DNA from: Escherichia coli
GTDB taxonomy: Bacteria > Pseudomonadota > Gammaproteobacteria > Enterobacterales > Enterobacteriaceae
Strand: one strand, 5' to 3'
Assembly (NCBI RefSeq): GCF_003334815.1
Contig: NZ_QOWO01000116.1
DNA length: 854 bases
The position numbers were made by a program, and so were the translations under genes. Shown one piece after another: positions 1 through 854 of the stretch (position 1 is the stretch's first letter; each line of letters opens with the position of its first letter). The notes below the pieces were generated by a model. That model worked only from the letters and a program-made list of their open reading frames with translations, was not told the origin of the DNA and did not search any database.

Positions 1-62
1 CGCGAGGCATCGTCTTAACGAGGCACCGAGGCGTCGCATTCTTCAGATGGTTCAACCCTTAA

Positions 63-854
63 GTTAGCGCTTATGGGCTGGTCACCCACTGGCACTATGA
101 CGAAGCAGACCGCCTCACGCACCGCACCGTGAATGGCGAAACCGCAGAGCGGTGGCAGTATGACGAACGCGGCTGGCTGACAGACATCAGCCATATCAGC
201 GAAGGGCACCGGGTGACGGTGCACTATGGTTATGACAGTAAAGGCCGCCTCGCCAGTGAACACCTGACGGTGCATCATCCGCAGACGAATGAACTGCTCT
301 GGCAGCATGAGACCAGACATGCGTACAACGCACAGGGACTGGCGAACCGCTGTATACCGGACAGCCTGCCCGCCGTGGAATGGCTGACCTACGGCAGCGG
401 TTACCTGGCAGGCATGAAACTCGGCGACACACCGCTGGTGGAGTACACCCGCGACCGCCTGCACCGGGAAACGCTGCGCAGCTTCGGCCGTTATGAACTC
501 ACCACCGCTTATACCCCTGCCGGGCAGTTACAGAGCCAGCACCTGAACAGCCTGCTGTCTGACCGCGATTACACCTGGAACGACAACGGCGAACTCATCC
601 GCATCAGCAGCCCGCGCCAGACCCGGAGTTACAGCTACAGCACCACCGGCAGGCTGACCGGCGTTCACACCACCGCAGCGAATCTGGATATCCGCATCCC
701 GTATACCACAGACCCGGCAGGTAACCGCCTGCCCGACCCGGAGCTGCACCCGGACAGCGCCCTCAGCATGTGGCCGGATAACCGTATCGCCCGTGACGCG
801 CACTATCTTTACCGGTATGACCGTCACGGCAGGCTGACAGAGAAAACCGACCTC
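63..854 (+). CDS. Rhs-family YD-repeat protein, core (shell) region; 5'-truncated fragment, 3' end continues beyond window; possibly a pseudogene or orphan core remnant
   Basis: Seen in sequence: frame 3 is open from codon 63-65 to 852-854 (264 codons, no stop). Translation contains repeated YD-repeat motifs: [10 protein letters not shown] (87-116), [10 protein letters not shown] (153-182), [10 protein letters not shown] (222-251), YNAQGL (324-341), [11 protein letters not shown] (567-599), [10 protein letters not shown] (630-659), [10 protein letters not shown] (702-731), [15 protein letters not shown] (810-854). The motif YxYDxxGRLTEK is characteristic of enterobacterial Rhs core proteins (established knowledge). 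GC content is about 60-68% in the segments I counted by hand, typical of the GC-rich Rhs core. Start coordinate 63 is the first codon after the in-frame TAA at 60-62; recognisable Rhs sequence begins near 75. No in-frame ATG/GTG/TTG lies between 63 and the GTG at 129-131; the first ATG is 414-416, and none has a convincing Shine-Dalgarno. An annotation pipeline might instead call a start at 129 or label the region a pseudogene. A truncated mid-core start is reminiscent of rhsE in E. coli K-12, but I cannot verify the paralog. Confidence 0.88.

Follow-up and report, generated by a model that had tools for sequence, protein, structure and literature searches.

A junction of IS186 with an rhs core in Escherichia coli, and short direct repeats of its YD-repeat coding sequence as endpoints of natural deletions

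The IS186/rhs junction

An 854-nucleotide stretch of Escherichia coli DNA (assembly GCF_003334815.1, contig NZ_QOWO01000116.1; hereafter the window) begins with the right end of the insertion sequence (IS) IS186 and continues into the distal part of an rhs core, a gene segment that codes for tandem YD repeats. The present analysis concerns the short exact direct repeats within this core, namely a 12-mer and an 8-mer each present in two copies, and the origin of the apparent 5' truncation of the rhs gene. The coordinates and strings given for both pairs in an earlier note on this DNA proved to be exact. The features of the window are as follows.

Positions 1-74, plus strand: right end of IS186, non-coding, interrupting the rhs core (RefSeq label, IS4-like element IS421 family).
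Positions 53-74, plus strand: 22-bp terminal inverted repeat of IS186, CAACCCTTAAGTTAGCGCTTAT, with a perfect reverse complement at the other end of the element.
Positions 75-854, plus strand: 3' continuation of an rhs core (rhsC-type, clade I), coding for YD/RHS repeats in frame 3.
Positions 75-86, plus strand: 12-bp target-site duplication GGGCTGGTCACC, present at both IS flanks in loci L001 and L003 and single in the intact locus L002.
Positions 174-181, plus strand: first copy of the 8-mer TGGCTGAC (tggctgac), read as TGG CTG AC, W-L-T of G-W-L-T (30.9 bits).
Positions 381-388, plus strand: second copy of tggctgac, read as TGG CTG AC, W-L-T of E-W-L-T.
Positions 647-658, plus strand: first copy of the 12-mer cggcaggctgac (CGGCAGGCTGAC), read as c|GGC AGG CTG AC, G-R-L-T of a canonical YD unit (34.4 bits).
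Positions 827-838, plus strand: second copy of the 12-mer, with the same codons, G-R-L-T of a canonical YD unit (36.2 bits).

Frame 3 of the plus strand, which codes for a YD-repeat protein, runs open from base 63 through the last base of the window. Over bases 75-854, the identity to rhsC is 100% for E. coli X14-3 and 99.5% for K-12. Sequences similar to the window are found in 4,053 of 5,426 complete E. coli genomes, with a median of 7 places per genome, and the best full-length match to the window among these genomes reaches 97.8% identity. The gene order kdpFAB-ybfA-rhsC-ybfB-orphan is found in the related loci L001, L002 and L004. In the 260-residue window product, four Pfam matches to RHS_repeat (PF05593) have independent E-values below 1, the best of which (6.7e-5) is the only one below 0.001, the other three being weaker (0.003, 0.011 and 0.18). 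A hidden Markov model (HMM) for which the clear YD units of the complete RhsC protein served as training set (consensus TTRYRYDSRGRLTRVH) detects seven positive-scoring units in this product, with irregular lengths of about 20-37 residues. Judged from these units together with the near-identity to rhsC and the locus, segment 75-854 is assigned to the Rhs/YD-repeat genes. Among the rhs copies of relatives, homology ends at about window-equivalent position 1745, beyond the window, where the reference DNA reads GATCCATTAGGATTA, that is D-P-L-G-L; cores of this clade characteristically close with a DPxGL motif ahead of a variable toxin tip. Open reading frames of 149, 99 and 78 residues on the minus strand overlap the rhs frame in this GC-rich region.

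Bases 1-74 are 100% identical to the last 74 nucleotides of IS186A of K-12, terminal repeat included, and the complete element in strain 2013C-4991 (L001), where rhsC is split by a transposase gene annotated as IS4-like element IS421 family, is 99.9% identical to IS186A. The other IS end in this locus, ATAAGCGCTAACTTAAGGGTTG, is the perfect reverse complement of the right inverted repeat. In strain 720632 (L003), the rhs gene of the yibF locus is split by the same element at the same position in the opposite orientation; in both loci the transposase gene is annotated just upstream of the segment equivalent to the window. The database alignments show the same architecture: many E. coli records, those that lack the IS, align to the window from base 75 only, and some, those with the IS in the opposite orientation, from base 53 only.

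The window itself includes only the right-hand copy of the duplicated GGGCTGGTCACC (75-86), which is a single copy in the intact rhsC of L002 (6001-6012), the empty site. The intact target GGGGCTGGTCACCC has the form GGGG CTGGTCA CCC A and matches seven of the eight specified bases of the target preference of IS186, GGGG(N6/N7)CCCC (PMC6925257). Because an IS end lies at base 74, followed by a 12-bp target duplication, and the empty site is present elsewhere, the "5' truncation" of the rhs gene in the window is an interruption by IS186, at a site in keeping with the preferred target of this element. The target duplication lies about 90 nucleotides from the nearest of the repeats named in the earlier note. 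The peptide encoded by the target duplication, G-L-V-T, was considered as a GxLT motif and rejected, its HMM register being that of the leading Gxxx of the next unit.

The same IS186/rhs junction, probed with 40 nucleotides across the boundary, was identified in 17 of the 5,426 genomes, where the element occurs in either orientation and occupies two or more rhs loci (rhsC, yibF-linked rhs and genes with other RHS annotations). These insertions at an identical site suggest either a recurrent hot spot in rhs cores or a single event that was spread by recombination between copies. The exact IS/rhs junction pattern has no match in 100,044 species-representative genomes, and a literature search of limited scope yielded no published description of this IS186 site in the rhs core.

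YD register and frequency of the repeats

The two members of each repeat pair share the codon phase in the rhs frame, and no exact repeat inside the window is longer than 12 nucleotides. In the HMM register, the GxLT position of strong units is occupied by G-R-L-T at 648-659 (34.4 bits) and 828-839 (36.2 bits) and by G-W-L-T at 171-182 (30.9 bits), so the earlier proposal that the repeats reflect repeated protein motifs and track GxL(T) holds for both copies of the 12-mer and for the first copy of the 8-mer. It fails for the second 8-mer copy: the two copies are embedded in ggctggctgac (171-181) and gaatggctgac (378-388), respectively, and the W-L-T at 381-388 comes after a Glu residue, its score being -24 bits in the GxLT register and -16 bits when W is placed at the YxYD position. 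Residues 64-167 of the window protein, which contain it, have no Pfam RHS_repeat match, and this copy was accordingly rejected as a GxLT motif. In a related observation, strain NCTC9080 (L005 1527) carries a synonymous C-to-A change at window position 659 that extends the identity of the 12-mer with the copy at 827 to 14 nucleotides (cggcaggctgacag), which could be a plain single-nucleotide polymorphism (SNP) or a very short conversion tract.

The frequency of such repeats was assessed for the coding part (75-854) against three null models, dinucleotide shuffles, codon permutations and synonymous-codon permutations, with 2000 replicates each. A repeat of at least 12 nucleotides occurs in 4.3, 7.7 and 5.9% of the replicates, respectively, so that the 12-mer alone is borderline (p 0.04-0.08), and a single 8-mer pair is unremarkable, the expectation being 10-17 pairs. 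Taken as a class, however, identical 8-mer pairs are far in excess: 40 are observed against 9.8, 13.4 and 16.9 expected, none of the 2000 replicates of any null reaches 40, and 32 of the 40 pairs are in phase. Short in-phase repeats are thus enriched about 2-3 fold. Stretches of equal length from real genes (kdpA, kdpB, selA, the IS186 transposase gene and yibA) contain 5-26 such pairs, and the window stretch has the highest count within rhsC, 38-40.

Part of the excess persists over the null that preserves the protein. We considered identity at this level as a sign of gene conversion specific to Rhs and rejected it: in kdpA, which holds a 13-nucleotide exact repeat of its own, di- and tripeptides that recur are written with identical codons to the same excess. 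Because of this equal excess in kdpA, the surplus over the protein-preserving null reflects ordinary codon-context bias. The same comparison bears on the possibility that the nucleotide identity is not a passive by-product but is kept up actively, for instance through gene conversion within the gene or through selection at the DNA or RNA level. The 8-mer count above the protein-preserving null and the use of GGC AGG in both G-R-L-T copies, with AGG enriched after Gly (p = 0.007), would be compatible with such maintenance, but codon-context bias suffices to account for the former, the fetched copies, all of which are at least 90% identical, are invariant at both sites and give no covariation signal, and Rfam has no match at E <=1 on either strand of the window. 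We regard active maintenance as improbable.

The codon usage at these positions deserves a separate remark. The rare codon AGG accounts for 9 of the 125 Arg codons in rhsC and is found after Gly in 5 of 21 G-R dipeptides compared to 4 of 104 other Arg positions (the Fisher test behind the p-value above). AGG following GGC at YD-type G-R positions is seen at window positions 651-653 and 831-833 and at codons 430, 440, 462, 884 and 944 of the L002 rhsC. Codon-context bias or a relic of an ancestral repeat unit are possible causes.

Deletion alleles at the repeat pairs

Natural deletions and duplications with endpoints in the repeats were sought in the 5,426 complete E. coli genomes with 40-nucleotide junction probes. 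The longest uninterrupted match of a wild-type copy to such a probe is 26-27 bases, under the 28-nucleotide megablast word. Probes with 150-nucleotide arms were discarded, the wild-type arms merging into one place and rendering junctions indistinguishable. A wild-type probe of the same design is found at 7,064 places in 2,718 genomes.

For the 12-mer pair, neither a deletion junction nor a duplication junction was found in these genomes. For the 8-mer pair, there is no duplication junction and a single deletion junction, in E. coli R1, whose rhsC is 3,987 instead of 4,194 nucleotides long, aligns with a single gap and contains an internal stop elsewhere in the gene. The question raised in the earlier note, whether breakpoints in related strains coincide with the repeats, is thus answered positively for the 8-mer pair, with exact endpoints, but not for the 12-mer pair, which shows no event. 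The survey was extended to every maximal repeat pair of 8 nucleotides or more in the window, 22 in total, 14 of which are spaced by no more than 250 nucleotides, as well as to all 7-nucleotide (18) and 6-nucleotide (49) pairs within the same spacing. Six further deletion junctions were detected among the pairs of at least 8 nucleotides, each verified by alignment to an intact rhsC, and duplications were found at none of the 22 pairs. The alleles, in window coordinates, are listed below.

Positions 174-380, 207-bp in-frame deletion in R1 rhsC: endpoints at the two copies of TGGCTGAC, one of which is kept.
Positions 96-158, 63-bp in-frame deletion in LR-17-1 rhsC: repeat TATGACGAA (Y-D-E) at 96-104 and 159-167; coding sequence annotated as intact, one 21-residue YD unit lost.
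Positions 214-264, 51-bp in-frame deletion in strain 789: repeat TGACGGTGCA at 214-223 and 265-274; coding sequence annotated as intact.
Positions 597-689, 93-bp in-frame deletion in XPFI_3_2 and YJR: repeat ATCCGCATC at 597-605 and 690-698; coding sequence annotated as intact.
Positions 641-667, 27-bp in-frame deletion in TOK-001 and CH423/425/458: repeat CACCACCG at 641/668.
Positions 618-708, 91-bp frameshift deletion in Res13-Lact-PEB17-18 and two other genomes: repeat CAGACCCGG at 618/709; pseudogene.
Positions 646-713, 68-bp frameshift deletion in GDAR2-2: repeat CCGGCAGG at 646/714; pseudogene.
12-bp deletion in UTME-13: repeat ACCCGGA (7 nucleotides).
163-bp deletion in ABW_A32/A33: repeat CCCGCG (6 nucleotides).

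The deletions within the window span 12-207 bp, three of the pairs (641/668, 618/709 and 646/714) cluster in window positions 618-721, and several junctions recur in independent assemblies (4, 3, 2 and 2 genomes). Deletion alleles are found at 5 of 10 in-phase pairs and at 2 of 4 out-of-phase pairs, and thus there is no sign that deletions are filtered by reading frame. Partial matches of 28-32 nucleotides were considered as possible junctions and rejected; of four looked at closely, one is the SNP C659A and another a wild-type copy with a local variant; the other partial matches, including those in selA and kdpB, cover no more than 29 of the 40 probe bases and were scored as non-junctions.

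The occurrence of deletions depends on repeat length. Junctions were found for 7 of the 14 pairs of at least 8 nucleotides spaced by no more than 250 nucleotides, for 1 of the 18 pairs of 7 nucleotides and for 1 of the 49 pairs of 6 nucleotides, compared to none of 133 spacing-matched pseudo-junctions without microhomology (Fisher test, p = 1.3e-8 for pairs of at least 8 nucleotides vs the controls and p = 3e-5 vs pairs of 6-7 nucleotides). These observations bear out the earlier suggestion that short tracts in the rhs core are substrates of illegitimate recombination, both at the 8-mer pair itself and at six other pairs. The reading of the repeats as coincidence in GC-rich coding sequence, without consequence, can appeal to the borderline 12-mer, to the 13-nucleotide repeat of kdpA and to the expectation of single 8-mer pairs; it is largely refuted, and in our assessment very unlikely, given the mostly in-phase 8-mer pairs beyond the reach of every null, the location of three of the four named copies in strong YD units, each at the same position of the motif, and the natural deletions located exactly at half of the close pairs and at none of the controls.

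With the same probe design, kdpA, kdpB and selA yielded full junction matches at 2 of 33 pairs of at least 8 nucleotides, so that, per pair, the control genes fall below Rhs (p = 0.0014). A genome carries roughly 3-5 rhs copies, so that the deletion rate per copy is of the same order in rhs and in the control genes. Deletions at such a rate in ordinary genes point to generic short-repeat instability. The two control matches, both known as probe matches only, are in kdpA (L002 1404-3077, minus strand) and correspond to a 24-bp deletion at positions 54/78 in four genomes (GCTGGCGCG) and a 47-bp deletion at positions 1120/1167 in one genome (GGCGGTGT).

Further deletions were observed in some of the same strains. 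In TOK-001 (L008 569-600), a yibF-linked rhs gene carries a 1,990-bp out-of-frame deletion that joins rhs nucleotides 10-17 to window-equivalent positions 1-8 at the 8-nucleotide AAACCGGC, with the loss of almost all of the N-terminal two-thirds; in this other strain, then, a repeat did give rise to a genuine 5' truncation. In XPFI_3_2 (L007), the rhs gene with the 93-bp deletion has a second in-frame deletion, of 87 bp (window-equivalent 1366-1452, outside the window), flanked by GCGGCCTG, and its coding sequence is annotated as intact. In ABW_A32 (L012 1018-1040), the yibF-linked rhs gene with the 163-bp deletion is also missing about 1.96 kb (window-equivalent -1691 to 266), and this junction contains about 10 nucleotides of unaligned sequence and no clean microhomology.

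Interpretation and relation to known systems

Taken together, the evidence makes it very probable that the window is a junction between the right end of IS186 and an rhs core, in which the repeated tracts are by-products of the YD repeats that seed slippage-type deletions, and that the IS interruption is a separate matter. The rhs core codes for tandem, degenerate YD repeats with conserved residues (Y-D, G-R-L-T and similar), and these residues, combined with strongly preferred codons (GGC, CTG, ACN), generate many identical in-phase tracts of 8-12 nucleotides that are not designed elements. Lying close together, direct repeats of this kind provide the microhomology for rare deletions, probably by replication slippage, in which the DNA between the copies is lost and one copy is kept, with a likelihood that climbs steeply with repeat length. 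In-frame events yield shortened open rhs genes, and out-of-frame events yield pseudogenes. The larger number of deletions in Rhs is accounted for by the roughly 2-3 fold surplus of short repeats, by the presence of several copies per genome and by dispensability. In a separate event, IS186 inserted itself at a GC-rich site close to the target that it prefers, duplicating 12 bp. The reading builds on direct observations, namely the coordinates and phase of the repeats, their register in the YD units, the deletion alleles with the effect of repeat length, the IS ends, the target duplication and the empty site; from these, we infer slippage as the mechanism and its independence of RecA, and the in-frame variants may still function.

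Several points weigh against this interpretation. The 12-mer pair, the longest repeat, has no deletion allele, although, with a rate of about 50% per pair, its absence lacks significance. Of the nine junctions within the window, five come from one assembly each, so that assembly errors are possible in principle. The per-copy comparison is rough, with 33 control pairs and an rhs copy number derived from counts of probe matches. Further, the requirement for an exact 28-nucleotide word means that deletions in divergent rhs copies escape detection, and a single reference allele served to define all classes of pairs. Finally, the 5' half of the rhs gene beyond the IS is deduced from two (L001 and L003) of the 17 junction-bearing genomes.

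A further-reaching view is that the YD microhomologies are a built-in source of length variation that gives functional shortened Rhs shells, alongside an undescribed recurrent hot spot of IS186 in the rhs core by which rhs genes of different loci would be inactivated. The in-frame alleles with an intact annotated coding sequence (63 bp in LR-17-1, 51 bp in 789 and 93 bp in XPFI_3_2) are compatible with this possibility, which we nevertheless consider doubtful; if true, it would represent a mechanism of diversification rather than decay.

The earlier note had also connected the tracts to the recombination from which Rhs took its name and to the 5' truncation, and neither connection stands. According to Jackson et al. 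(PMC2935791), the name goes back to an unequal crossover of rhsA with rhsB that depended on recA and was selected as a glyS duplication, and in natural genomes the rhs elements do not constitute hot spots. RecA-dependent exchange has a minimal processing segment of about 23-27 bp (PMC12074656), and therefore tracts of 8-12 nucleotides are too short for this pathway; the demonstrated rhs rearrangement in Salmonella involves 522 bp at 95% identity between main and orphan genes (PMC3967940). The longest repeat within the window is 12 nucleotides, and homology of RecA length is found only between whole cores and orphans: in L002, the main core (6622-7656, window-equivalent 696-1730) and the orphan (8478-9959) form a direct repeat of 1,036 bp with 97.6% identity. 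Thus, even though the TOK-001 allele illustrates that a repeat-made 5' truncation can occur, the proposal that short tracts served as substrates of classical Rhs recombination and caused the truncation in this window is extremely improbable and, for this window, refuted, being excluded by the anatomy of the IS junction (an IS186 end with a 12-bp target duplication at a site that is intact in other strains), with the classical event a whole-element crossover and kilobase-scale homology at hand in a related locus.

The orphan fragment downstream of ybfB has its 5' homology boundary at about window-equivalent 690-696, adjoining the ATCCGCATC repeat, and at this boundary the orphan differs from the main core by a 6-bp gap flanked by ATCC.

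Two scales of rhs recombination are thereby separated. Homology of kilobase scale between cores and orphans drives RecA-dependent swapping of toxin tips and the historical "hot spot" phenotype, and the motif-coded tracts of 8-12 nucleotides give rise only to rare slippage deletions. Where an rhs fragment that lacks its 5' part adjoins an IS end, as it does here, the arrangement is to be read as an IS186 interruption and not as a repeat-mediated deletion. The survey of 5,426 genomes provides a natural dose-response for microhomology length (0, 6, 7 and at least 8 nucleotides), and the accumulation of repeat deletions in rhs cores, some of which preserve the open reading frame, is useful for the annotation of rhs pseudogenes and length variants. 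Beyond such bookkeeping, the significance is slight.

Among known systems, the classical rhsA x rhsB crossover and recombination between main and orphan genes involve the same gene family and the same type of long core/orphan homology that is present in the related locus, but they require hundreds to thousands of base pairs and RecA, unlike the tracts in the window, which fall below 23-27 bp. The closest counterpart of the deletions described here is RecA-independent deletion between short, close direct repeats, by replication slippage or sister-strand misalignment, which is documented in E. coli K-12 (PMC5426353, citing Bzymek & Lovett 2001 and Lovett et al. 1994). Our case differs in that it represents standing variation in natural genomes rather than a genetic assay, that RecA independence is presumed, and that reciprocal duplications are absent at all of the 22 pairs; the similarities are the location of the endpoints in direct repeats with one copy kept, the steep dependence on repeat length, the spans of 12-207 bp and the involvement of ordinary genes. 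The IS186 insertion resembles those at GC-rich hot spots of this element (consensus GGGG(N6/N7)CCCC; the lon promoter of E. coli B) in the 12-bp duplication, the GGGG-N7-CCC target, the 99.9% identity of the element to IS186A of K-12 and the recurrence of the rhs site in both orientations and several rhs loci; the rhs target is distinct in that it ends with three C's rather than four and lies inside rhs coding sequence. The gene itself differs from the E. coli clade I Rhs cores (the rhsA/B/C type of YD-repeat polymorphic toxin genes) in being split by IS186, with the distal core alone inside the window, and is like them in the complete identity of 75-854 to an annotated rhsC, the RHS_repeat matches in the window and the synteny of kdp, ybfA, rhsC, ybfB and the orphan in relatives. 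All of the mechanisms involved are, in this comparison, known biology.

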